Positions 764 to 51,228 of a stretch of DNA of 64,000 nt are shown one piece after another. The DNA lies in the sequence record PZ168832.1, one strand, 5' to 3'. The notes under the pieces were generated by a model that was given only the letters and a program-made list of their open reading frames with translations, searched no databases and was not told the origin of the DNA. Source of the stretch: a phage. How positions within the stretch are numbered: position 1 is the first letter of the stretch; every line of letters begins with the position of its first letter. The position numbers were made by a program, and so were the translations under genes.

Positions 764-868
764 TTCAGGCGACCTTTGTTAGTGCGGAAATATTTTTTGA
801 TAGTATAATTGCAGATATAGTATAAAGCAAAGTAAATCGAAATTGTGAACTAAATGGTAAATATTGTT

Positions 869-897
869 GACTTTGTATCACTCAATATTATACTGCA
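869..897 (+). promoter_or_regulatory. sigma70-like promoter upstream of primase gene (TTGACT, about 17 bp spacer, TATACT)
   Basis: Read directly in the 764-923 intergenic region; purine-rich RBS (gaaggaaag) precedes ATG at 924. Confidence 0.35.
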
Positions 898-3179: not shown

Positions 3180-3315
3180 TAGTTCACCAGTTATATTGCT
3201 TTAAATTGAGTTTTACTATATTAATATACAACGCCAGATTTCTGGCGTTTATTTACCGCACCCTGAAAGGATATATCCATGCAACAATATAACAAAGCCG
3301 TATCAGGAGGATTAA

Positions 3316-6354: not shown

Positions 6355-6576
6355 ATGAGCAAGAAAACCCTTAAGGCTGGCGACCGTATCCGTTGGGTGT
6401 CAGGACAGCATATGCGCGCAGGCACCATCCTTGAGCTGGATGAATACCTTACCGATTCGCGCGGTCGCAATCATTACCGTGTAAGAATCGATACAGTAAA
6501 AGAAGATGACAAGTCACTGGTTGGTGAAGTCGTCATCGTAACTCCACGTCAAATCAAGGCGGCTTGTGAAGCATGA
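6355..6576 (+). CDS. hypothetical small protein (MSKKTLKAGD...)
   Basis: In-frame ATG within track ORF 6190..6576, chosen because the longer form overlaps the upstream gene. Confidence 0.35.
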   Translation: MSKKTLKAGDRIRWVSGQHMRAGTILELDEYLTDSRGRNHYRVRIDTVKEDDKSLVGEVVIVTPRQIKAACEA

Positions 6577-6730
6577 ATAAATATCAATTTAGCGATAATA
6601 AAATCAGTAAGGCAGATGCAATCAAGCAGCTTCGCCGCGTACTTGAAGCCAGCGGCCATACGAAAGAGCGCGCACGCGTCCTGGCCAAAGAGCATTATAA
6701 ACGTTTTGTGTCACAAATCAGAGGTTGACC

Positions 6731-7078
6731 ATGGCTCATGTTAAAGACGAAGTGTTGTATGGCGCAGAAATTAAGAAGCGCGTGCGTGAGATGGCTTCCG
6801 GTGGCACGCTGCTGCCGCCGCGCGTTCGATGCGACCATGTGATTGGCGTATCCGGCACGAAAGAGATGGGTGTGTTGGTAAAAGACATTCGCGTTGGCGA
6901 TGTCATGGTCATAGACCGACAAGCACGCGTCGTTATCCAGGTGCAACCGAACGATGATGAAGGCTGTGTTCTATTGAAGCTGAAGAAGCTTTCATCCAGC
7001 CCAGCGAAGGCCGTCATCAAGAAGGTGTGGCCCGAAGGATTACGCAAACTCATTCGTCGACCCGTGGAGAATGTATAA
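6731..7078 (+). CDS. hypothetical small protein
   Basis: Track ORF 6725..7078 with start at MAHVKDE. Confidence 0.35.
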   Translation: MAHVKDEVLYGAEIKKRVREMASGGTLLPPRVRCDHVIGVSGTKEMGVLVKDIRVGDVMVIDRQARVVIQVQPNDDEGCVLLKLKKLSSSPAKAVIKKVWPEGLRKLIRRPVENV

Positions 7079-7314
7079 TGGAAGATTATATCAACGCTAT
7101 GTATATGGCATTCTATGTCGTGCAACTTCCCAATGGCGCGGTATTCTATGGCGAGTATACCTTTGACGTTCAATATGACGTTTCAGAGCGTACAGTGTTA
7201 ACAAGGGAGTTAATCGCGGACCTTAAGGACGACATCAAACGCGTCGCGCGGCAGCAGTTCAATTTGGATGACACCGTCATCGTTCGAATTACCGGAATAA
7301 CAGAGGTGCAGTGA
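7078..7314 (+). CDS. hypothetical small protein
   Basis: In-frame ATG (MEDYINAMY...) of track ORF 7027..7314. Confidence 0.35.
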   Translation: MEDYINAMYMAFYVVQLPNGAVFYGEYTFDVQYDVSERTVLTRELIADLKDDIKRVARQQFNLDDTVIVRITGITEVQ

Positions 7315-7643
7315 TGACCCGTGATCAGATACTCGCCGCGCATGAGCGTGGATTGATAAAGGAAGTTTGGAAGAAGGCCAATGTCTTTGCTGATTCTTAT
7401 TACTTCTTAAAGAAGTGCATAAAAGAAAATGCAAGAATGGGCAACACAGTATTGACTTTTAATCTTCTATCTTATGGCGAAAAGCTTAATGCAATATATG
7501 CTTGTCGACTAGCCAGCATGAAGTTCGATAGAGGAAACGACGGAGAGTTGACCATCTATCGATTCTCTCACCGGACGGGTGATACAAAGATAACAAGGAC
7601 ACGTGACCAGATAGAGATTGACCTACTCCACTATGTAAAATGA
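7311..7643 (+). CDS. hypothetical protein (110 aa)
   Basis: ORF track. Confidence 0.4.
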   Translation: MMTRDQILAAHERGLIKEVWKKANVFADSYYFLKKCIKENARMGNTVLTFNLLSYGEKLNAIYACRLASMKFDRGNDGELTIYRFSHRTGDTKITRTRDQIEIDLLHYVK

Positions 7644-7647
7644 ATAT

Positions 7648-7696
7648 CAAAAGGTGAGCTAAATGCTTGCCTTTTATTTTATCAATACTTATACTA
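7648..7696 (+). promoter_or_regulatory. terminator-promoter cassette 1: hairpin plus T-run, then TTGCCT (about 17 bp) TATACT
   Basis: caaaaggtgagctaaatgcttgccttttatttt forms a stem with G-U pairs followed by a T-run; the -35 lies in the descending arm. Confidence 0.45.
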
Positions 7697-7727
7697 TTTT
7701 CATCAAGACAAACAAGTGAGGCGAATT

Positions 7728-8045
7728 ATGATTTACTTAGGCATCGACCAGGAACAAGACGAGCGTTTAGGAAGCGTGTTAAACGTAGACTTAAACACAG
7801 CTGTACACATCAAGCCTTGGCCAGAGGACCACGGCGACGTAGTTGTACCCGTTGCGCCTTGGACGCGTTACGTGGCCATTGACAATGACGGCCTTGTACA
7901 TTGTTATTCAGAAAAGCCGACCTACTTCGAAAAGTATCACCAATGGCTCATGACTGGTTGGGCATTGGTACGCTGTTGCGGCGAAGTCGGTCTGGATGGC
8001 TGGAGCTTCGAGGCTAGTGAATCGTGTGTCGAGGTGCGATTATGA
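7728..8045 (+). CDS. hypothetical protein
   Basis: Track ORF 7716..8045, start moved to ATG (MIYLGID...). Confidence 0.4.
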   Translation: MIYLGIDQEQDERLGSVLNVDLNTAVHIKPWPEDHGDVVVPVAPWTRYVAIDNDGLVHCYSEKPTYFEKYHQWLMTGWALVRCCGEVGLDGWSFEASESCVEVRL

Positions 8046-8260
8046 ATGCCGCGCTGGGTAAGCTGTCTTTCAACAAGCGCAACGAGTTGCGTATGGTGTC
8101 GCGCTTTCAACAAACGCATTTATCACTAATCAAGATTGCAAACAAGGCCTACTCTCTAAATTGTCCTGAAGAAGAATGGAAAGAATTGAATGAGCGTCGT
8201 AAACAATTACAAAAGGCTGCGTTTAAGCTGCAGCAATATGCCATGGAGTATGCAAAATGA
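8042..8260 (+). CDS. hypothetical small protein
   Basis: Track ORF 8024..8260, start at MNAALGK. Confidence 0.35.
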   Translation: MNAALGKLSFNKRNELRMVSRFQQTHLSLIKIANKAYSLNCPEEEWKELNERRKQLQKAAFKLQQYAMEYAK

Positions 8261-8640
8261 GAATGAAGCGTTGCCCTTACTGCCACGATGTAATGCACCT
8301 TCCACACGAAGAGTTTGTGCAGCACATGACTAACTGTGATAAGAATCCTAAGAGCGAAAGCCAACTTGAAGAAAGAATGTTCTTGGTGTCATTCAAAGCT
8401 TCTGCTTATGAAGTGCAACGTTCTTACGGCGCACCAAGTACGATTTACTGCCCAACAACATTGAGAAGCGACATCGACTCAATTCAGCTTGCGGCCTGGA
8501 TTAACGTTAAGGAAGGAGTCACGCCGCACTTTATTGCGCGCCTCCAATCTCAGATTCTACAAATGAAGCGCGAATACAACCGTGACATAACTGAAGTGAA
8601 GGTGTTGTCTATCACGCCTATGAATAAGGAGTTGCCGTGA
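8257..8640 (+). CDS. hypothetical protein with Cys/His cluster (CPYCHDVMH)
   Basis: ORF track. Confidence 0.4.
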   Translation: MRMKRCPYCHDVMHLPHEEFVQHMTNCDKNPKSESQLEERMFLVSFKASAYEVQRSYGAPSTIYCPTTLRSDIDSIQLAAWINVKEGVTPHFIARLQSQILQMKREYNRDITEVKVLSITPMNKELP

Positions 8641-8897
8641 ACAAGGGTCCGATGACGAAGTTGGCCGTTGCCGCGCGGAAGCTTCGACAAGCCGTTAATG
8701 GGTCGCGGCCCGTGGCGTTAACACTCGACGATGCAAAGGCACTGGTAGAGCTGCTCGACGAGCACAACCGACGCAAGAATCTGGAGAACACATTACGCTG
8801 GCGCGTTACTCCGAAAGGGCGGGAGAGCGAAAAGAAAGCTTACTTGCGGCGCAAACTAAGGTCGGTCGGCCTTCACGAAGAGGCGAAGAATATTTAA
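8637..8897 (+). CDS. hypothetical small protein
   Basis: ORF track. Confidence 0.4.
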   Translation: MNKGPMTKLAVAARKLRQAVNGSRPVALTLDDAKALVELLDEHNRRKNLENTLRWRVTPKGRESEKKAYLRRKLRSVGLHEEAKNI

Positions 8898-8900
8898 TTC

Positions 8901-8947
8901 AAAAAGGTGAGCTAAATGCTTGCCTTTTTATTTGCCTGTATTATACT
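8901..8947 (+). promoter_or_regulatory. terminator-promoter cassette 2 (near-identical copy of cassette 1)
   Basis: aaaaaggtgagctaaatgcttgcctttttattt followed by TTGCCT (about 16 bp) TATACT. Confidence 0.45.
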
Positions 8948-8975
8948 TAGTTCATCAAGCAAAGGAGAAATGATT

Positions 8976-9278
8976 ATGAGTTACGACGAAAGGTTTGGCA
9001 GAAGCGGATTATTTCATGACGCTGTACACAAAGACAGCAAAGATGTTGTCTGCGCATTCAAGGTTGATTCTTACGGTACACTGAAACCTTTTAAGGTCGG
9101 CGAAACATACAAGCTGTTTCACGGCTGGTTGACGCGTCGCAACAACTTGCCTGACGTGGAGGTGTGGTGGATAGAATACAAGGGTCAGGCTCATCGGTGC
9201 AAGGTTGTAGAGATGCACGGCGTCAAATACTATCAATCGATCATCAGCGGCTTTGTTTTTAAAGAGGGTGAGCTATGA
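8976..9278 (+). CDS. hypothetical protein
   Basis: Track ORF 8916..9278; start moved to ATG with aaggag RBS. Confidence 0.4.
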   Translation: MSYDERFGRSGLFHDAVHKDSKDVVCAFKVDSYGTLKPFKVGETYKLFHGWLTRRNNLPDVEVWWIEYKGQAHRCKVVEMHGVKYYQSIISGFVFKEGEL

Positions 9279-9580
9279 GTACAGAAGCGATGAAGAAAAA
9301 GATTTTGAACGCTTTGCAAGAAGGCGTGAACTGTGGTGCTATCAAAGAGTTTAATGAGGCGCAAGTCAGCGGAGAGAATGCAATAGGATTTAGTAATAAT
9401 AAAGGCGGCATCGCCGCAATCCTTTTGTTAAACAACACCGATGATAAGTTTATACTTTACGTCGGAGGGTATGAGCTTGTTGTTGATGATTTATTCATCA
9501 CTTGTGCCGACGGCCTTAACCCTATGTTGACATTTGAACGTTGCGGAATTCGTGTTGCAACGTTTGGAGGGAATTTATGA
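9275..9580 (+). CDS. hypothetical protein
   Basis: ORF track. Confidence 0.4.
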   Translation: MSTEAMKKKILNALQEGVNCGAIKEFNEAQVSGENAIGFSNNKGGIAAILLLNNTDDKFILYVGGYELVVDDLFITCADGLNPMLTFERCGIRVATFGGNL

Positions 9581-9762
9581 GTACCGAAGTCCATAACGCT
9601 TCAGCACTGGTGAGCTTTTACCGCAACAAAGGCGTGTCACTCGTTAAAACGCCGCAAGGCATGCTGTTCTTTGGCACGCGCTTCCTTAAGGCTTCGGAGC
9701 GTGAAACGCTGTCCAAGTTTGACCAGAAAACATTGCACGCAGTTTGGAGAAGACAACAATGA
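9577..9762 (+). CDS. hypothetical small protein
   Basis: In-frame ATG of track ORF 9541..9762 (ATGA overlap). Confidence 0.3.
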   Translation: MSTEVHNASALVSFYRNKGVSLVKTPQGMLFFGTRFLKASERETLSKFDQKTLHAVWRRQQ

Positions 9763-9995
9763 CATCCAATCTTAAAGCCCGTTTGTTATTCATCAAGCCG
9801 CATGTGCCTTATAAGATTAGTAAGCGCACCTGGCTTAACATTTACAACCGCAGCGGCGACCGTTGTTTGTACAAGGCAAAGCGACGCAAGAAGGTATATT
9901 TAAAGGCTGTGGTGTCGCATCCTGTTGATGCATTCCTCGTCGGCGAAAATGAATTATCAATCGGCTATCAAATTGAATTAGGAGTAAAGAAATGA
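9759..9995 (+). CDS. hypothetical small basic protein
   Basis: In-frame ATG of track ORF 9744..9995. Confidence 0.3.
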   Translation: MTSNLKARLLFIKPHVPYKISKRTWLNIYNRSGDRCLYKAKRRKKVYLKAVVSHPVDAFLVGENELSIGYQIELGVKK

Positions 9996-10318
9996 AAATC
10001 GAACAACTCGAAGCATTATTGGAAATGGCTGTAAAGGCAGGCGCAATAAAAAGCTATCGCCGCGAGAAGTCTGACGATGCTGCGCACTTTTGTCGCAACT
10101 TCTATATTGTCGGCAACCTTAACGACCACTACACCATCGAGTGGTATACTAATATGATGACGCTTAAGTCGCGCACCATGGAGCTTTGGTGCGATGACGT
10201 TTGTCTTTCTCATAGCCACCCGTGCTACGACGTTGCGCTTGGATTCTTTTACAAAAGCAACCAGCCAATCGCCCACATCGGAGAGAAGTACGACCACTTG
10301 AAGGAGAAGGTTGAATAA
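9992..10318 (+). CDS. hypothetical protein
   Basis: ORF track. Confidence 0.4.
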   Translation: MKIEQLEALLEMAVKAGAIKSYRREKSDDAAHFCRNFYIVGNLNDHYTIEWYTNMMTLKSRTMELWCDDVCLSHSHPCYDVALGFFYKSNQPIAHIGEKYDHLKEKVE

Positions 10319-10659
10319 TGGAAGAGCAAGAAGGTCGTGAGCTAACGTTCGACGAGCAAATGAAAGAGCTTCAGCGCACATCGCCGCTGCGCGGTAAGAT
10401 TGTTGACATCGAGGCGAGCGAATCCAATCTCACCCAGTGGCGGCTCAAGTGCACCAGCACAAGCAAGGATATGTTAAGCTTCAAAGTCGGTCATACTTAT
10501 TTGCTTTATGAGGCAAAAGGACTTATTATTGATGGAAGGCAAATTGTCTTCACCGTCGTCAACGGCATGCGTTGGTTCGTGAAGCGTGATGTCGAGGGCC
10601 GTGACATGTTTGTCGCAGGCTTTCTAGAAACAAGATTCCAATTGGAGAAGGTTAAATGA
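10318..10659 (+). CDS. hypothetical protein
   Basis: ORF track. Confidence 0.4.
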   Translation: MEEQEGRELTFDEQMKELQRTSPLRGKIVDIEASESNLTQWRLKCTSTSKDMLSFKVGHTYLLYEAKGLIIDGRQIVFTVVNGMRWFVKRDVEGRDMFVAGFLETRFQLEKVK

Positions 10660-10988
10660 AATTGAAATGGTATGTGGACCCTGAGCCGACAGGCCAATAC
10701 AGGTCATTCCAACGTCGCGGCTGGCCGACTTGTTACAGCGGCAATCCCGATAAAGAAGACTGCGAGCTGCTTGCCGCTATCGTAAGCCTCGACCATCACG
10801 GCTATGAAGGCCACTACGCGAGAGCAACCAACCTTCGGCTCAAGGTGCGCATCCATTTCAAGGTCGCAGGCGAGGACCGCACCGGACTCTCCAAGGAAGA
10901 GTTCAGCAGCATCGCCGACGCAAAGGCGTGGCTCAAGGCTTTCTATAAGAACAACCCTAAATTCTATCCAACTAAGGATGCATCATGA
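10656..10988 (+). CDS. hypothetical protein
   Basis: ORF track. Confidence 0.4.
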   Translation: MKLKWYVDPEPTGQYRSFQRRGWPTCYSGNPDKEDCELLAAIVSLDHHGYEGHYARATNLRLKVRIHFKVAGEDRTGLSKEEFSSIADAKAWLKAFYKNNPKFYPTKDAS

Positions 10989-11476
10989 CTAATAAAACTC
11001 AGCGCATCAAGTTCGAAGGCAAAGAATACAAAATAGACGTTCGTGCAAGATTCATTGCGCGCGATTCCAATGGCGGCATTTGGTTGTATGAGTCAAAACC
11101 TGTATGGGAAGAGCGGCGCGGCCAGTGGTTGTACGAGACTTGTGGTTCGGTTTGGTGCGAGCGCATCGACCAAGTGAAGACGTTGAAAAAGAACCGACCA
11201 GCATCACGAGATTCTCTGCAAGAAGTCGAATCAATCAAAATCCAAGACCCAGCAACGTCGACCGATAAACAATACGCAGTCGGGCAACGTGACATCGAGC
11301 AACTCGACGAGGGTGGCTATTATACGCGCCACATCTATGCCATGACTCATGAAGGACTTTACAGCAAGTCAGACATCGCCGCTGAACTGGCTCACCGTGA
11401 CTTGCAAATTGACCTTCTCAAGATAGAAGTGCAAAACTTACGCAACACCCTGTTAAATACTTGGAGCTTAAAATGA
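10985..11476 (+). CDS. hypothetical protein (163 aa)
   Basis: ORF track. Confidence 0.4.
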   Translation: MTNKTQRIKFEGKEYKIDVRARFIARDSNGGIWLYESKPVWEERRGQWLYETCGSVWCERIDQVKTLKKNRPASRDSLQEVESIKIQDPATSTDKQYAVGQRDIEQLDEGGYYTRHIYAMTHEGLYSKSDIAAELAHRDLQIDLLKIEVQNLRNTLLNTWSLK

Positions 11477-11898
11477 TACAACGTTACGACCTGACATATG
11501 ATGTGGTATCAGAAGATTGCGCCATCACTCCCGTTCCAGAGAGTCATGAAGGACGTTTTGTTGAATATGAGGACTATGCTGCGCTGGAAGCGAAATATAG
11601 TGAAGCGCAACGCGAGTTGGTTGCATTACGCTCACAGGTCCGTGATGCGTCGGCGCTTGTTAAGCAGTTGCACGACGTCGTTGCTACTATAGGCGTGGAT
11701 GATGATGCACCGAAGGAGGAAGCGTGGACCGTGTGGCTTGGTGGAGATAATCCGGTGCCTGGGAAGATGGTTGAGTTTGAATTACTCAACGGTTATAAAT
11801 CAAAAGCTGCCGTTCCTTCGGACAGTTTGACATGGGATAAAGTCACAAGCCCGACTGGTGCAAAGATTATTGCCTATCGGGTCGTTAAGGAGGGGTGA
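11473..11898 (+). CDS. hypothetical protein
   Basis: In-frame ATG of track ORF 11461..11898. Confidence 0.4.
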   Translation: MIQRYDLTYDVVSEDCAITPVPESHEGRFVEYEDYAALEAKYSEAQRELVALRSQVRDASALVKQLHDVVATIGVDDDAPKEEAWTVWLGGDNPVPGKMVEFELLNGYKSKAAVPSDSLTWDKVTSPTGAKIIAYRVVKEG

Positions 11899-12347
11899 TG
11901 GGTAAAAAGCTTATCGCCGCTGGTTGGGCCATCCCGAAGTGGGCTCATCGTGCGCACTACTTTGATGAAGGAGAAGTGCAAAGCCTTTGTGGTCGCGCAA
12001 CTTATTTCGGTGATGAGCGCGTCAGCGGCGATTACATCGACTCGCTTTTAGGCAAAGGTGATTGCAAGAAATGTCAGGATATATTAAGAGATATTCTTAC
12101 GCAAAGAGGATTGCTTGAGCTTGATGAATCGGAGGAAGTAATTGAACTTAAGCTTGAAGCGAATTACCTTATTTATACGTTCAAGAACTATTACGCAACT
12201 AATATGCGCTCAAAAATGAGCGAGGAAGTAATAGAAAAGGTGTTCACCTACAATCCGCTAAGGATGAATAAAACTAAATTGAAGAAGTTTAATATAATGT
12301 TAAGGAAAGAATTTAAAAGGCTTGGAGTGAAGAATTTTATATTTTAA
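11895..12347 (+). CDS. hypothetical protein (150 aa), last gene of early operon
   Basis: ORF track; followed by a terminator. Confidence 0.4.
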   Translation: MMGKKLIAAGWAIPKWAHRAHYFDEGEVQSLCGRATYFGDERVSGDYIDSLLGKGDCKKCQDILRDILTQRGLLELDESEEVIELKLEANYLIYTFKNYYATNMRSKMSEEVIEKVFTYNPLRMNKTKLKKFNIMLRKEFKRLGVKNFIF

Positions 12348-12363
12348 TAGTGATTAATGTTAA

Positions 12364-12388
12364 GAGGGCCGATTGGCCCTTTTTGTTT
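12364..12388 (+). terminator. rho-independent terminator ending the early operon
   Basis: agggccgattggccc stem followed by ttttt. Confidence 0.5.
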
Positions 12389-12880
12389 GCCTGTGGAATG
12401 TGAGGCTTTTGTGGTTATTTACGATTCAAGGCTGTAATTTAAGAGAGCGAAAATATTATAATAATTTATCAAGATTATTGCATATTGTGGCAATCAACGT
12501 TTATACGTATTTATGACAGTTTAATCCACTAAATAATACGGATAGAACAGTGAGGAAAATACAGCGGTGTATTTTAGTGTAAATATTGAATCAAAAATAA
12601 ATAATTATGGTGCTATTATATACGCAGATTGTTTGTAATTTATAGGATATTTTATCGTGGAGTATTGGCTAACGGTGCGTTAGCCGTGGGTCTTGGTGCT
12701 TGTGGTGTTGATGCTCAGAATTTTAATAATGTTTTAGTTTTAGTAATCGTAGTCAATGATGATACGTATAAGAAAATGAGAGTCACCCCTTCACAGGATA
12801 TTGTACCGTGGCCCTGTGGTGCGCCGCGCCTGGGATTGCTGGTATACACTGGTGCTATTTTGCCGCGAAGGCAGTCATTC

Positions 12881-13210
12881 ATACGTATCATGACGTATCA
12901 TTGGGCTATTGATTTATAAGGAAAAATACGCTGATACGGATGATACGGGTGCAAACATAATATATATAGAATTCCAGAAAATTAATTAACTCCATTTTGA
13001 ATTAATTTAAATTAATTTTTTTCTACATCCTCATACTTATACTAAACTTATATTTATACGTATCATCCGTAAGATATAAGTAAAAACAAAGACTTGCGGC
13101 AATACGGATGATACGTCATGATACGCTTCAACCAGCCATCTGCGGCTAAGTCATTGATTTGCATAACAAGCGGCGAAAGGGATGGATTTCTTTTATACGT
13201 ATCAAACAGT
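12881..13210. repeat. iteron region A: CCGTATCAT / ATGATACGG copies in alternating orientation around an AT-rich core
   Basis: acgtatcatgacgtatcat (~12883), gatacggatgatacgg (~12933), AT-rich core with gaattc and attaatttaaattaattttttt, cgtatcatccgta (~13059), atacggatgatacgtcatgatacg (~13102), tatacgtatca (~13196). Confidence 0.6.
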
Positions 13211-13339
13211 ACACCACGCACCACGGTCCGCAATCCACGCAGCATTATGATTTGTGTACATTTATAGCCATAATGAACATCAATCTGCACTTGAATATAA
13301 TGTCCATCCATTGTATAATTCACACTATTAATTTGCACT

Positions 13340-13828
13340 ATGGGATTTTGCACTATGAGTCAAGACTATGTAGCGATGCCTGAAGACTTTGAAGACCCGC
13401 GATTTGCAGAGCACAATCAGGCTTTATTCGATGAGTTCATTGACCTTGTTATTCAGGGCCATGACATGCGCGCAGCTTTTGCACTAGTATTTGGAATGGA
13501 AGTTGCAACGGATAACTACACTGGACAGCGAATCCTTTGCGCGCAACGCAACCCATACTACAAAATGCGCTTCAAAAAGCGTATGGAAGAGATGCCACTC
13601 AAGGATTTGTGGAGCGTAAAAGGTGCAATTCACAATTTGGTTAAGCTTGTGCGTGATCCAGAAGTCGCGGCGTCAGCCAAGCTTAATGCTATTCGCGAAC
13701 TGAATATCATCTACGGCATCACGATGATTGATGAAAACGGCAATAGTAAAATGGGCCGTTCCATGGACGATTTCTACAAGGATTTTGGAGAGGCAGCCAA
13801 AGAAGGCGAGCAATTCTCCCGCCACTAG
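13340..13828 (+). CDS. possible terminase small subunit (alternatively a DNA-binding regulator)
   Basis: 162 aa; FIDLVIQGHDMRAAFALVFG...AQRNPYYKMRF resembles the helix-turn-helix region of small terminase families (from memory); flanked by the 12-mer array. Confidence 0.4.
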   Translation: MGFCTMSQDYVAMPEDFEDPRFAEHNQALFDEFIDLVIQGHDMRAAFALVFGMEVATDNYTGQRILCAQRNPYYKMRFKKRMEEMPLKDLWSVKGAIHNLVKLVRDPEVAASAKLNAIRELNIIYGITMIDENGNSKMGRSMDDFYKDFGEAAKEGEQFSRH

Positions 13829-13845
13829 CCAATTTGCACTATAAA

Positions 13846-13880
13846 ACGGCCCTAGAACACATCTTCTCCACTTCTAGGGC
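13846..13880 (+). terminator. perfect 10-bp inverted repeat (ggccctagaa ... ttctagggcc), probable terminator
   Basis: Directly after the 13340..13828 stop; no strong T-run. Confidence 0.35.
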
Positions 13881-13942
13881 CGTCGGTAATACGACGGGGA
13901 AGGTTGCAACCGTAAACGCGTTAGAAAGTGTATTATTATAAG

Positions 13943-14206
13943 TCATCTTTTAGTCACCTTACGTAACAATTTACGACCTTCAGCCGTCCAATCGAACGAC
14001 TCCACCAGCAGATTCGCACTATAACCTAAGATGATGCGCCCTTTCTCGTTATCGACCCGCCAACAAGTCTCGAATAGCATTCGATTTGCACTATTAACTA
14101 TCGCCGCAACGCGCGTAGGGTAAACGCAATTTGCACTATGGTCATAAAGGGATAAGGTGCGACCACTTCCGATGGACAACGTAGCGATGAGAATGAGCGT
14201 ATTCAT
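13943..14206 (-). CDS. hypothetical protein (87 aa), island gene
   Basis: ORF track; CpG-rich codon usage; contains two 12-mer copies. Confidence 0.35.
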   Translation of the reverse strand: MNTLILIATLSIGSGRTLSLYDHSANCVYPTRVAAIVNSANRMLFETCWRVDNEKGRIILGYSANLLVESFDWTAEGRKLLRKVTKR

Positions 14207-14256
14207 AAGCCACCAATTTGCACTATGAAAAGCGACCCCGAAGGGCCGCCATTCGA

Positions 14257-14883
14257 TTAGATAATCTGGAAGGTGTAGGACTTGTTGCCGAACTCGAAGT
14301 TCAAGCGCCCAGCTTCCTTAAGCTTCATGCGGAAGCGAATATGTTTGCTATCCGGTAAGCCCAGCGCGGCGAACGCTACGCGGACCGATTTGAACTCTCC
14401 TACACCCTCGACCATAACGCCGTTACGGGTAAGACGCTTTTGCGCCACTTCCTTATTATCCCAACTTTTTGCAATGCCTTCGCTATTCGAACGGCGATGG
14501 GAAGGAGTTCCGTTTTGCACTACGCAATTTGCACTATCGTTTAAACCGCTCTTAACGAAGGCTTCATACTCTTCGTCGGTCATCGCGTCGAGTTCTTCCT
14601 GCGTCGGCTCGGCCTTTTTAACGACCGCACGCGCCTTATGCGTTTTTACATCGCTGGACACTTCCTCGCGCGGCTTCGCGTCGGGGATGGGCGATTCGTT
14701 GGACGGCTCATCGAGCGCGTTTAAGGACTCGATTAACGCGATTACGCGAGTCTCGGCGGTCCGGCGGTCCGAAAACTTCTTAATCGGTTTTGAGCCGGAA
14801 TTTGCATTATAGAATGCAACGAGGTCGGCGGTCTTAGTTGCGATAACGTCGCCGCTAGTCGAGAAGCGATTTAAGCTAACCAT
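14257..14883 (-). CDS. hypothetical protein (208 aa) with acidic central segment, island gene
   Basis: ORF track; EPTQEELDAMTDEEYEAF; unusually NCG-codon-rich. Confidence 0.45.
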   Translation of the reverse strand: MVSLNRFSTSGDVIATKTADLVAFYNANSGSKPIKKFSDRRTAETRVIALIESLNALDEPSNESPIPDAKPREEVSSDVKTHKARAVVKKAEPTQEELDAMTDEEYEAFVKSGLNDSANCVVQNGTPSHRRSNSEGIAKSWDNKEVAQKRLTRNGVMVEGVGEFKSVRVAFAALGLPDSKHIRFRMKLKEAGRLNFEFGNKSYTFQII

Positions 14884-14963
14884 AATAAACTCCTATTTGT
14901 TAGGGCGCTAGGCGCGAAAGAATTTTATTAAAGCGCCGCGCACGACGCTCTAAAAATCCTCTC

Positions 14964-15248
14964 TTACGCTTCGACGAGGGAGAAGGTTTCAAATTCTTCT
15001 TCTCCCATAACGAGTAAAATATTCCCGATTTCGACCGCTTCGAAGAAGTATCCGTTAACGTTTACTTCGAATGATTCGCGGTCCGATTCCGGTAACGCCG
15101 CGTAAAGTTTAAAAGCCTCGGCGACCGTTACCCCACCCGCTTCAATAGTTTGATCTACGTTCGCGGCGTAGACTTCGGATAAATTTTGTTTTACGCCGTA
15201 GTTCTCGACGATAGCGTTACGGATAGAAGAAACGTTAAGAATAGCCAT
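14964..15248 (-). CDS. small acidic protein, paralogue family member 1 (94 aa)
   Basis: About 16 D/E versus 4 K/R; SEVYAANVDQTIE and FEVNVNGYFFEAVEIGN align with YLSNVDATIE and YRVTINGFVYTITEIGG of 15880..16170. Confidence 0.5.
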   Translation of the reverse strand: MAILNVSSIRNAIVENYGVKQNLSEVYAANVDQTIEAGGVTVAEAFKLYAALPESDRESFEVNVNGYFFEAVEIGNILLVMGEEEFETFSLVEA

Positions 15249-15316
15249 TTTAAACTCCTAGTTGGGATAGGCGTTAACGACCTATTCGTTAACTCATCCC
15301 GTCCCGATATGAGTAC

Positions 15317-15344
15317 ATTATAATATAGTGTAGAAAAAAGTAAA
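15317..15344 (-). promoter_or_regulatory. promoter-leader cassette, copy 1 (minus strand): TTTACT, spacer, TATAAT, leader gtactcatatcgggacggg
   Basis: Reverse complement of the divergent region matches the two plus-strand cassette copies. Confidence 0.4.
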
Positions 15345-15388
15345 GCACTTTTTCGATAAAAATGCGATAAATTATTTTATCTTTTTTC

Positions 15389-15433
15389 TTTACTTCTTCG
15401 TACACTCGCGTATACTTGTTTATATCGAGACGG
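15389..15433 (+). promoter_or_regulatory. promoter-leader cassette, copy 2: TTTACT (16 bp) TATACT, leader gtttatatcgagacggg
   Basis: ctttacttcttcgtacactcgcgtatacttgtttatatcgagacggg upstream of ATG 15472. Confidence 0.45.
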
Positions 15434-15471
15434 GCGATGGCCTTTCTTCTACTAGCATCGGGAGCTTTATT

Positions 15472-15774
15472 ATGACTACTTTGATCTCTTCCATCCTTAC
15501 TTACGACGAAGACCGCTTAACCGTTCGCTCTCTTATCGCCGCCGTTAACGCGGAACTAGAATCTAGCGCCATTAAGGTCCGCGCGGTCGCCTTCATCGGC
15601 CTTTCCTTCGACGATATGAAGTACGCCGAACGTAGCGCCATCCGCTTCACGAAGACCGACGACGAAGCCGTTACCCTTATCGAGACGGTTACGCCGCGCG
15701 ACGAAGCGTTAATTATCATCGAGTATATCGATATAGAAGGTGATAAAGCTTATAAATATTTTATCGCAAAATAA
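15472..15774 (+). CDS. small acidic protein (100 aa), island gene
   Basis: ORF track; driven by cassette copy 2. Confidence 0.45.
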   Translation: MTTLISSILTYDEDRLTVRSLIAAVNAELESSAIKVRAVAFIGLSFDDMKYAERSAIRFTKTDDEAVTLIETVTPRDEALIIIEYIDIEGDKAYKYFIAK

Positions 15775-15785
15775 CGAAAAATTGC

Positions 15786-15830
15786 TTTACTTATTCGTAC
15801 ACTAAGACTATAATGTTTATATCGAGAGGG
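15786..15830 (+). promoter_or_regulatory. promoter-leader cassette, copy 3: TTTACT (17 bp) TATAAT, leader gtttatatcgagaggg
   Basis: gctttacttattcgtacactaagactataatgtttatatcgagaggg upstream of ATG 15880. Confidence 0.45.
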
Positions 15831-15879
15831 ATGAGGAAGCGAATAGGTCGCTACCCTCCCGACTAACTAGGAGAATATT

Positions 15880-16170
15880 ATGATTACTTTATCCGCTATC
15901 CGCGCCGCTCGCGTCGAAACTTCCGAAAACTCTAATGTATTTGGCGAAACCTTAGAGAGCGTTTATCTCTCTAACGTAGACGCGACTATCGAGTCTATTT
16001 ATGAACCGATCAACTTCCTCGACCTTTACAAGTATCGCGACGAGGACGTAGCATCCTACCGCGTAACGATTAACGGCTTCGTCTATACGATTACCGAAAT
16101 CGGCGGCGAATATCTCGCGATCCCGCAACTCGGCGGAGAAGTGACTTATTTTAAAATCGTAAGCCTTTAA
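15880..16170 (+). CDS. small acidic protein, paralogue family member 2 (96 aa)
   Basis: Alignable to 14964..15248 product; about 15 D/E versus 6 K/R. Confidence 0.5.
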   Translation: MITLSAIRAARVETSENSNVFGETLESVYLSNVDATIESIYEPINFLDLYKYRDEDVASYRVTINGFVYTITEIGGEYLAIPQLGGEVTYFKIVSL

Positions 16171-16181
16171 GGAGAAGAAAA

Positions 16182-16391
16182 ATGACTAATATGAATAACT
16201 CTCTTAACGCGCGCGCCCATCGTACCGCCGTCATCGATATGTTCCGCGAACTTAAGGAATTATGCGATAATATGAACGCGATGTTATCCATCGGCGGCTG
16301 GGGATACGAAGAAGAGGTTAAATACGCGGTTATGCGTCGTAAGCGCGATAACGTCCTGGGACAAATTAAACGCGCCGGATTATTCCTTTAA
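16182..16391 (+). CDS. hypothetical small protein (69 aa)
   Basis: ORF track; aggag RBS. Confidence 0.4.
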   Translation: MTNMNNSLNARAHRTAVIDMFRELKELCDNMNAMLSIGGWGYEEEVKYAVMRRKRDNVLGQIKRAGLFL

Positions 16392-16416
16392 TTATAATTA
16401 CCCACCGTTACTAATA

Positions 16417-16440
16417 GGCCGCGCTTAGTCGCGGCTTTTC
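16417..16440 (+). terminator. rho-independent terminator (ggccgcgcttagtcgcggc plus tttt)
   Basis: Read directly after 16182..16391. Confidence 0.45.
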
Positions 16441-16561
16441 TTCGTCCCTATTTCGATGCGCTTCTCCGCGAAAACTCCTTTATCCTTCCCTTCGTCGTCG
16501 CATAATCTTCTTCGAGATGCTCCTTAGTTCGCATAACAGGTATTACGTTAAATGGAGAACA

Positions 16562-16823
16562 TCGCGTAAGTCCTTGTTTTATATAGACACCTATATCGGA
16601 CCGTTAGGGCGGGTCGCGTAAGTCGTTGTTTTATAAAGGCGCAAAACTTTCCCTTCGTTCCGAACTAAAACGAGGAATATGCCGACCCTTCGTCCGAAAA
16701 TAGTACGCATGCGAAATTACATGCATCTAGAATAATCCCCACCGATATTATCCTACACGCAATCATTCGCTTTCGAATCATTATGCTTCATATTGTTATG
16801 CGTCAAATCATTCGCTTTCGAAT
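16562..16823. repeat. direct repeats in an ORF-poor region: tcgcgtaagtc(c/g)ttgttttata x2 and atcattcgctttcgaat x2
   Basis: Copies at about 16562/16614 and 16762/16807; the second contains palindrome attcg-cttt-cgaat. Confidence 0.4.
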
Positions 16824-18525: not shown

Positions 18526-18594
18526 TTGTTAACGTATAATGAGTATAACTTAATAGCCCATAAAGTAAAGGCGCTTTTCAGCGCCTTGAGTGAA

Positions 18595-22188: not shown

Positions 22189-22277
22189 ATTACCTCCGGT
22201 TTTGAGTTAATATGATTATAACGCAGAGCTTCAGAAAGGCAAACTTTTTGTGAATTTATGCCGTCCATGGCAAATGA

Positions 22278-28655: not shown

Positions 28656-28760
28656 AATTAAGGCGCGGCTATATCGGTTGTTATACATATTCAAACCATA
28701 ATTATTGTTTGCCTAAGTTTTTTTCATTAGATATAATACACAATACTTATTTGAGGGTGG

Positions 28761-51202: not shown

Positions 51203-51228
51203 GATTTCCGGCTTTATGTATACACTGT
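51203..51228 (-). terminator. terminator-like hairpin (agccggagatttccggct) with U-rich flank on minus sense
   Basis: Read directly between ligase and the downstream minus gene. Confidence 0.4.

Follow-up and report, generated by a model that had tools for sequence, protein, structure and literature searches.

We analyzed a 64,000-nucleotide (nt) stretch of phage DNA (sequence record PZ168832.1; hereafter, the window), in which two intergenic spacers located at positions 7644–7727 (84 nt) and 8898–8975 (78 nt) contain near-identical modules combining a hairpin, a T-run, and promoter-like hexamers. The window originates from a Wifcevirus phage, an Escherichia coli myovirus of the WFC/WFH/ECML-117 group, and the region containing the spacers is 87% to 93% identical to the corresponding region of Wifcevirus phages (myoviruses of E. 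coli and Shigella of the WFC, WFH, ECML-117, and Bas98–101 group). Both spacers belong to a rightward gene cluster of approximately 11.5 kb, which extends from a divergent intergenic region (approximately 763–924) to a terminator at 12362–12385, and they delimit 3 blocks within it: an upstream block, which includes an ATPase gene, a 1.2-kb block of 4 ORFan genes, and a 3.4-kb block of about a dozen ORFan genes. The succession of elements is the same in both spacers, namely, stop codon, hairpin of 11 to 12 base pairs (bp), T-run, TTGCCT, 17 or 16 nt, TATACT, TTCATCAAG, ribosome-binding site, and ATG (Table 1).

Table 1. Features of the two modules and of the surrounding gene cluster, in window positions. 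Promoter, terminator, and start-site assignments are predictions; SD, Shine–Dalgarno sequence; CDS, coding sequence.
Feature	Positions	Strand	Basis and remarks
Upstream ORFan gene	7311–7643	+	TGA at 7641–7643, 5 nt before hairpin 1; orthologue annotated in WFH/WFC; no Pfam or PHROG family
Hairpin 1, AAAAGGTGAGC / TAAAT / GCTTGCCTTTT	7649–7675 (G+C core 7653–7671)	+	Fold; terminator scan
T-run TTTTATTTT, U-tract of putative terminator 1 and beginning of promoter spacer	7672–7680	+	Sequence; tail in terminator scan
Candidate −35, TTGCCT, promoter 1, within 3′ arm of hairpin	7667–7672	+	Promoter scan; motif recurrence; invariant in 14 distinct orthologous sequences
Candidate −10, TATACT, promoter 1, 17-nt spacer	7690–7695	+	Promoter scan; recurrence; conservation
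TTCATCAAG box around inferred start A7702	7699–7707	+	Present in both copies; start inferred from distance to −10
SD GTGAGG (7716–7721) and ATG (7728–7730) of first gene of middle block	7716–7730	+	Sequence; orthologous CDS starts in WFH/WFC
Hairpin 2, AAAAAGGTGAGC / TAAAT / GCTTGCCTTTTT	8901–8929 (core 8906–8924)	+	Fold; 3 nt after TAA (8895–8897)
T-run TTTTTATTT, U-tract of putative terminator 2	8925–8933	+	Sequence
Candidate −35, TTGCCT, promoter 2	8920–8925	+	Promoter scan; recurrence; conservation
Candidate −10, TATACT, promoter 2, 16-nt spacer	8942–8947	+	Promoter scan; recurrence; conservation
TTCATCAAG box around inferred start A8954	8951–8959	+	Common to both copies; conservation
SD AAGGAG (8962–8967) and ATG (8976–8978) of first gene of distal block (8976–9278)	8962–8978	+	Sequence; CDS starts in WFH, WFC, and Bas98
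First promoter-like site of cluster, TTGACT-16-TATACT	867–894	+	Divergent intergenic region; weak profile likeness to module; divergent arrangement in WFH
Middle block, 4 ORFan genes (7728–8045, 8042–8260, 8257–8640, and 8637–8897)	7728–8897	+	Predicted transcription unit of ~1.23 kb
Putative cluster-closing terminator, GGGCC GATT GGCCC and T-run	12362–12394	+	Terminator annotated at the same place in WFH

The two copies share a 26-mer, AAAGGTGAGCTAAATGCTTGCCTTTT, which is identical at 26 of 26 positions (7650–7675 and 8903–8928) and yielded 0.00 matches in 100 dinucleotide-preserving shuffles. A repeat search delineated 32 nt with 94% identity (7649–7680 and 8902–8933), and a second common block, TTATACTnnnTTCATCAAG, is found at 7689–7707 and 8941–8959, the distance between the copies being 1253 nt for the first block and 1252 nt for the second. 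In the pairwise alignment, the likeness runs from the A-tract that follows the upstream stop codon as far as the downstream ATG, and the flanking coding sequences are unrelated, so that the repeat unit corresponds to the whole intergenic spacer. Beyond the A+T-richness of the spacers, no compositional step was detected at the modules.

An earlier note on this DNA had described two near-identical modules at approximately 7648 and 8901, each with a hairpin, a T-run, and TTGCCT/TATACT hexamers, a description that our analysis confirms, and had proposed to look for further copies genome-wide. No third copy of the 26-mer was found in the 64-kb window with up to 3 mismatches. Likewise, an nhmmer profile built from 25 distinct module sequences recovered the two known copies (E values of 5e-23 and 2e-21) and no others in the window; its next matches, which are below significance (E values of 0.16 to 0.3), correspond to the 2 other promoters of the cluster, at 2008–2062 and 839–895, which align to the promoter half of the module and resemble it weakly. 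A sensitive blastn search (word size 11) with a 69-nt module query against 50,697 phage records produced matches in 29 GenBank records, all from Wifcevirus and each at exactly two places, and none outside Wifcevirus. The matches in IMG/VR were similarly restricted to Wifcevirus, Wifcevirus-like contigs in a metagenome scan have both copies, and no module was found in complete E. coli genomes. The repeat is real, non-random, and genus-wide.

The upstream half of each module has the properties expected of an intrinsic terminator at the level of sequence. On the + strand, the hairpins comprise 11 or 12 bp and a 5-nt loop (AAAA(A)GGTGAGC / TAAAT / GCTTGCCTTTT(T)), with folding energies of −13.8 kcal/mol for copy 1 and −14.7 kcal/mol for copy 2 (z-scores of −4.2 and −3.9, respectively), and none of 200 shuffles was as stable. 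The folds of the − strand are weaker (−10.0 and −9.7 kcal/mol; z-score of −2.4). The stem has two non-Watson–Crick positions, which read T·G and G·T on the + strand, so that the + RNA has G·U pairs there where the opposite strand has A·C mismatches; if two mismatches were drawn at random, the chance that both are of the + strand G·U type would be p ~(2/12)^2 = 0.03. The restriction of G·U-compatible mismatches to the coding strand argues for an element that operates at the RNA level and is read in the direction of the genes. In the same orientation as the genes, both copies display a G+C-containing stem-loop within the range usual for such terminators (about 5 to 14 bp, with a loop of 3 to 8 nt), a U-rich tract directly 3′ of it, and a position shortly after a stop codon. 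In the GenBank records of WFC (MK373777) and WFH (MK373776), the 19-nt cores of both orthologous hairpins are already annotated as putative terminators at both positions (ARNold score of −10.10 in the WFC record), with no overlapping promoter annotated at these sites. The searched text of Korf et al. 2019 (PMC6563267) leaves promoters unmentioned and refers to terminators only via the ARNold reference.

A stable + strand hairpin between cistrons could also serve RNA processing or stability, being cut by RNase III, guiding RNase E, or shielding the 3′ ends of upstream mRNAs, without terminating transcription, and the earlier note had offered processing sites as one of its explanations. Hairpins between cistrons are cleaved by RNase III in T7 and other phages, the typical substrates of this enzyme comprising ~20 bp or more of (interrupted) double-stranded RNA. 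The stems considered here reach 12 bp at most, including 4 to 5 A-U and 2 G·U pairs, which is well under that length; the U-tract directly after the stem is a signature of intrinsic termination, and nothing about the element is specific to processing. A search of Rfam returned nothing credible and no family match (the best hit, MicX, scored 19.6 bits against a threshold of 75, with an E value of 0.17). We regard a role confined to processing or stability as highly improbable, and this part of the earlier proposal is not supported.

The downstream half resembles a sigma-70 promoter. The promoter scan lists TTGCCT-17-TATACT in the first copy and TTGCCT-16-TATACT in the second, that is, hexamers close to TTGACA and TATAAT at a distance of 16 to 18 nt, placed ahead of a downstream gene and conserved. 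The combination TTGCCT-N16/17-TATAMT occurs 4 times in the window, compared to 0.02 expected, and the 2 occurrences outside the modules (TTGCCT-N16/17-TATAAT at 22242–22215 on the − strand and at 28709–28737 on the + strand) are intergenic, each pointing toward a neighboring gene that has a good ribosome-binding site. TATACT is also the −10 hexamer of other well-placed candidates, at 867 (+), 15389 (+), 18569 (−), and 51170 (−), and the promoter-like site at 2008 opens with the same TTGC-TTTTATTTT as the modules, in this case without a hairpin. The A of the TTCATCAAG box (A7702 and A8954) lies 7 nt beyond the −10 hexamer, and these positions are the inferred start sites, as expected from the usual distance between −10 and start; the distance from there to the ATG would be 26 nt in copy 1 and 22 nt in copy 2.

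Comparison of orthologous modules lends both halves a common line of support. The dataset included both copies from 17 loci and the window, amounting to 14 distinct sequences of copy 1 and 12 of copy 2. Across the stems and −10 hexamers, 0 of 56 columns are variable, compared to 25 of 79 among all other columns from the A-tract up to the ATG (Fisher p = 4e-7), the variable positions falling in the loop, promoter spacer, discriminator, leader, and the spacer between SD and ATG. Loop variants (TAAAT, TAAGT, and TATAT) are confined to copy 2 and variants in A-tract length to copy 1, and just 1 of 18 columns varies in the TTCATCAAG box. Such a distribution of variable and invariant columns is what selection on both hairpin and promoter would be expected to produce. 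In every relative, each copy has retained its own diagnostic spacer, which indicates that the duplication is older than the radiation of the genus. Gene conversion between the copies was considered and rejected, because there is no polymorphism common to both.

Collectively, we consider it probable (roughly 75%) that each module is a composite spacer in which the 3′ arm and U-tract of an intrinsic terminator overlap the −35 hexamer of a sigma-70 promoter, both halves being functional. Directly evident from the sequence and its comparison are the hairpin, the T-run, the hexamers with their spacing, the placement relative to the stop and the start codon, the specificity for one strand, and the selective pattern of conservation. 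Together with the recurrence of the hexamer pair and the terminator annotations in WFC and WFH, they support the overlap of hairpin, T-run, and promoter that had been proposed in the earlier note.

Several points weigh against this interpretation. The G+C core of the hairpin is modest, consisting of 7 bp with 2 G·U pairs and, when folded alone (GGUGAGC-UAAAU-GCUUGCC), reaching −8.7 kcal/mol. The stems show no compensatory changes across the relatives; covariation is not expected, because divergence is low (~10% of the genome), and the backing of the structure is thus confined to invariance and strand asymmetry. A search for more distant relatives amenable to covariation analysis, conducted via the downstream protein, returned only ECML-117. 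The −35 hexamer is inseparable from the stem as a target of selection. The hexamers match the consensus at only 9 of 12 positions in each copy. Moreover, taken together, promoter-like matches are about as frequent in this A+T-rich DNA as in shuffles (33 compared to 32 expected), so that the hexamers alone prove little. Furthermore, the hairpin is fully identical between modules that are otherwise diverged paralogs, which goes beyond the strict needs of a terminator and could hint at sequence-specific recognition. Finally, the literature yielded no transcript, 5′-end, or 3′-end data for any Wifcevirus, and both halves are predictions.

The lack of enrichment of promoter-like matches and the limited agreement of the hexamers with the consensus would favor modules that are terminators only, in which case TTGCCT and TATACT would represent a non-functional by-product of an A+T-rich spacer and the downstream genes would rely on read-through; TTGCC is in any case constrained as part of the stem. 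However, neither TATACT nor the TTCATCAAG box is part of the hairpin, and both are invariant, or nearly so, in both copies while their neighbors vary, and the same hexamer pair with the same spacing recurs at the 2 other gene-proximal intergenic sites against an expectation of 0.02. Without a restart of transcription, some 16 conserved downstream genes would starve. We consider the terminator-only explanation unlikely.

The complete identity of the hairpins, including the loop, between modules with diverged spacers and the invariance of the hairpin sequence across the genus might alternatively reflect a DNA operator, an imperfect 11-5-11 inverted repeat over the −35 hexamer bound by a dimeric phage or host regulator that would co-repress both promoters. 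Its position, approximately −53 to −27 relative to the inferred start, would be typical of repressor sites. However, both mismatches between the arms are tolerated in RNA, as G·U pairs on the coding strand, and break the DNA palindrome, and the loop, which would form the center of the operator, varies in copy 2. The T-run follows directly, the element is situated 3 to 5 nt after a stop codon, as terminators are, and no candidate regulator was identified. We consider an operator very unlikely.

If the modules are composite terminator–promoter spacers, RNA polymerase arriving from the upstream genes would pause on the U-tract (~7676–7682 and ~8929–8935), and the GGUGAGC/GCUUGCC hairpin, lengthened by A-U pairs, would release part or all of the transcripts, whereupon the E. 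coli sigma-70 holoenzyme would start anew at ~A7702 and ~A8954. The resulting transcription units would be ~1.2 kb in length for the 4 ORFan genes (7728–8897), ending at module 2, and ~3.4 kb for the distal block (8976–12347), ending at the terminator at 12362–12385. How strongly, and possibly when, the accessory-gene blocks are expressed would thereby become independent of the upstream block of replication genes. With just 3 to 5 nt separating it from the stop codon, the hairpin begins in the region covered by a ribosome that sits on this codon; its 5′ arm could be briefly hidden during translation termination, so that transcription termination may be partial and modulated by translation. The earlier note had envisioned staged expression of sub-blocks of an early operon. 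Neither early timing nor staging is supported. Since both promoters are nearly the same and belong to one class, that of the host RNA polymerase, nothing in the sequence predicts that the two blocks differ in timing, and the further putative promoters (867 and 2008) and terminators (~3230 and 12362) of the cluster argue against a single operon. A more economical reading than staged expression is that the modules insulate and reset transcription.

Composite spacers of this kind have precedents. The promoter-early stem-loops (PeSLs) of T4-type phages are conserved composite promoter–terminator motifs that fill the space between a stop codon and the next ATG where ORFans abound (Arbiol et al. 2010, PMC2839356; Comeau et al. 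2014, PMC4122927). As in the modules, for which the functions are predicted, a sigma-70-type promoter is joined to a stem-loop acting as a terminator or attenuator, the stems contain G·T pairs, and the motifs are repeated in ORFan-rich, indel-prone regions with gene indels adjoining them. The Wifcevirus modules differ in belonging to another lineage and lacking sequence homology to PeSLs (blastn, word size 11), in being present in 2 copies per genome, and in the placement of the stem-loop, which lies upstream of and overlaps the −35 hexamer, whereas in PeSLs it is mostly located between −35 and −10 or over −10. Moreover, the 29 Wifcevirus genomes show neither exchange between the copies nor chimeric copies. 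The modules share with PeSLs the composite motif, without the homology and without observed recombination between copies, a defining trait of PeSLs: they match PeSLs in working principle and are not members of the PeSL family.

A second comparison is offered by phage 14-1 of the genus Pbunavirus, which depends on the host RNA polymerase and for which 26 sigma-70-like promoters and 14 terminators have been mapped, with overlapping transcription units (Putzeys et al. 2024, PMC10914365). Wifcevirus and Pbunavirus are distantly related genera (PMC11990801). Both phages display host-type promoters, many short transcription units, and intergenic terminators consisting of a hairpin and a U-tract. In Wifcevirus, the elements physically overlap and are duplicated nearly verbatim, and the sites are predictions, whereas those of 14-1 are mapped; no homology to any 14-1 element was shown. 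Given that the terminators are already annotated in related records and that the design principle is known, the modules represent an ordinary kind of phage regulatory module. They provide a testable map of transcription units for the accessory-gene cluster of Wifcevirus, an understudied group of practical interest as O157/O-antigen-targeting phages, for which very fast replication is reported. The 2 compact (~80 nt) predicted terminator-plus-promoter parts could serve in engineering Wifcevirus phages. They also add a non-T4 example of composite promoter/terminator spacers punctuating ORFan regions, leaving general concepts unchanged.

The similarity to PeSLs raises the question of whether the modules are mainly mobile linkers, that is, patches of homology for the insertion, deletion, or swapping of ORFan genes, with promoter and terminator traveling along, a possibility that is compatible with the composite terminator–promoter reading. 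This linker concept has been documented in T4-type phages (PMC2839356, PMC4122927). We surveyed breakpoints across window positions 6500–10500 in comparison with 14 relatives. All 4 module edges coincide with indel junctions in at least one relative, and the genes flanking the modules are ORFans. In WFC and Bas100, an extra 195-nt gene located upstream of copy 1 has on either side a 21-nt direct repeat without mismatches, AAATGAATATCAAAAAGGTGA, which comprises the stop codon and the 5′ arm of the hairpin, the arm doubling as the ribosome-binding site of the extra gene. In Bas101, an extra 312-nt gene downstream of copy 2 is flanked by a 27-nt, 89% identical repeat of the module leader, SD, and ATG. 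In CWP003, copy 1 is followed by an additional gene, with the junction at GGTGnnATTATG, and in RCIP0319, 3 genes are inserted, the left junction of the insertion, GGTGAGGTAAATATG, resembling the 5′ arm and loop. Several alternative genes follow copy 2 among the relatives.

At least 6 ordinary, module-free gene junctions within the same 4 kb are also breakpoints (6726, 8257, 9275, 9577, 9760, 9900–9967, and 10310), as many as at the modules, which are thus not demonstrably preferred sites. The indels at module edges involve microhomology of 10 to 27 nt with other gene boundaries rather than exchange between copies. No such exchange was found in the 29 records, all of which have exactly 2 copies; none of the copies was lost, fused, or multiplied in the metagenome contigs, and the copy-specific spacers bear no sign of gene conversion. 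The number of copies, 2, compares with dozens in the hyperplastic regions of T4-type phages. The modules share in the general mosaicism of the hyperplastic region, and a driving role is not demonstrated; we consider it possible, albeit doubtful, that they serve mainly as linkers. A more specific and yet more tentative version is that of a PeSL-like "gene-capture" linker outside T4-like phages, in which the modules would actively shape the plasticity of the accessory region. The 5′ arm and loop of the hairpin, AAGGTGAGCTAAATG, would mimic a ribosome-binding site and start codon, and the 3′ edge would represent a generic leader, SD, and ATG, such that ORFan genes lacking a promoter of their own could enter via microhomology, either immediately ahead of the terminator or immediately behind the promoter, and would be expressed at once. 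The insertions in WFC/Bas100, RCIP0319, Bas101, and CWP003 follow this pattern.

The region between 6500 and 10500 is hyperplastic as a whole, with indels or replacements at nearly every gene boundary among the 14 relatives (6726/6727, 7640–7730, 8257, 8900–8985, 9275, 9577, 9760, 9900–9967, and 10310). The window is devoid of a gene of ~480 nt present at 6726/6727 in most relatives and of a 285-nt gene that WFH, WFC, and Ro157lw have at 8257. Two adjacent genes open with the same 14 nt, TATGAGTAC(A/C)GAAG (9274–9287 and 9576–9589), and several relatives (Bas98, RCIP0319, and TH32) have a deletion exactly between these two repeats. Paralogy of the genes at 9275 and 9577 was rejected, since their proteins share no similarity despite the common 14-nt start.

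Combinations of terminator and promoter were observed elsewhere in the window. At 18587–18542 (− strand), the architecture is that of the modules with an unrelated hairpin: AAGGCGCTGAAAAGCGCCTT overlaps a −35 hexamer, TTTACT, which is followed after 16 nt by TATACT, and the leader of this site, AACAAGTGAGGTGTATTATG, closely resembles that of module 1, AACAAGTGAGGCGAATTATG. At 51215–51143 (− strand), a terminator hairpin, AAAGCCGGAAATCTCCGGCTTT, is followed ~24 nt on by TTTACT-16-TATACT. The leader of the latter site, AATCAAAAGGTGAATTATAATG, resembles the 5′ arm of the duplicated hairpin, which implies that ATCAAAAGGTGA is also a genuine ribosome-binding site in this phage. At 4 unrelated metagenome loci (6 matches), the stem of the module hairpin, AAGGTGAGC-N5-GCTTGCCTTTT, is present in identical form with different loops and a T-run after it; three of the contigs concerned (L021/L026, L022, L025, L027, and L029/L030) are 280 to 444 kb long. 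These loci are probably independent, generic (convergent) terminators, or else matches that arise by chance when a pattern of 20 bases is sought in so large a collection.

The loop of each hairpin contains an ATG (7663 and 8916) preceded by AAGGTGA, which opens an 18-codon open reading frame (ORF) in copy 1 (7663–7719), whereas in copy 2 it would lengthen the following gene in frame by 20 codons (8916–8975). The annotation of AV128 begins the next gene at the loop ATG (locus L013, 2691–3053), and in Bas98 (L008, 2115–2207) and Bas99 (L011, 2119–2211), a 93-nt CDS is annotated across module 1. We dismissed the loop mini-ORF as incidental, since its frame relative to the downstream gene shifts by a 1-nt indel in the WFH/WFC type and the ATG is sequestered in the stem and located upstream of the inferred start site. 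The corresponding CDS annotations in AV128, Bas98, and Bas99 are probably artifacts.

In addition to the features listed in Table 1, the cluster has a promoter-like site at 2008 and a hairpin terminator at ~3230–3247, upstream of the gene for a P-loop ATPase/primase-like protein. For 7 proteins neighboring the modules, no functional Pfam or PHROG assignment was obtained and no Pfam match passed the curated threshold; the lone PHROG match, to phrog_1972 (unknown function), is that of the gene that opens the middle block. At the end of the cluster, the terminator has a tail, CCTTTTTGTTTGCCTGT (12378–12394), that coincides with that of module 2 at 16 of 17 positions (0.01 expected), with no −10 hexamer after it, and the tail of the WFH counterpart, TTTGTCCATGTGG, is a weaker match. 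The cluster-end terminator was considered as a third module and dropped, given that the module 2-like tail is not conserved in WFH and the −10 is absent. Downstream of the cluster, the region at ~12400–16700 is A+T-rich (G+C content of 0.31 to 0.39 at 12200–13000), and both of its strands carry short genes, amid closely packed sites that resemble promoters and terminators. Judging from the location in WFH and Mansfield, this region should be the direct terminal repeat of ~3.7 kb, present once in the window.

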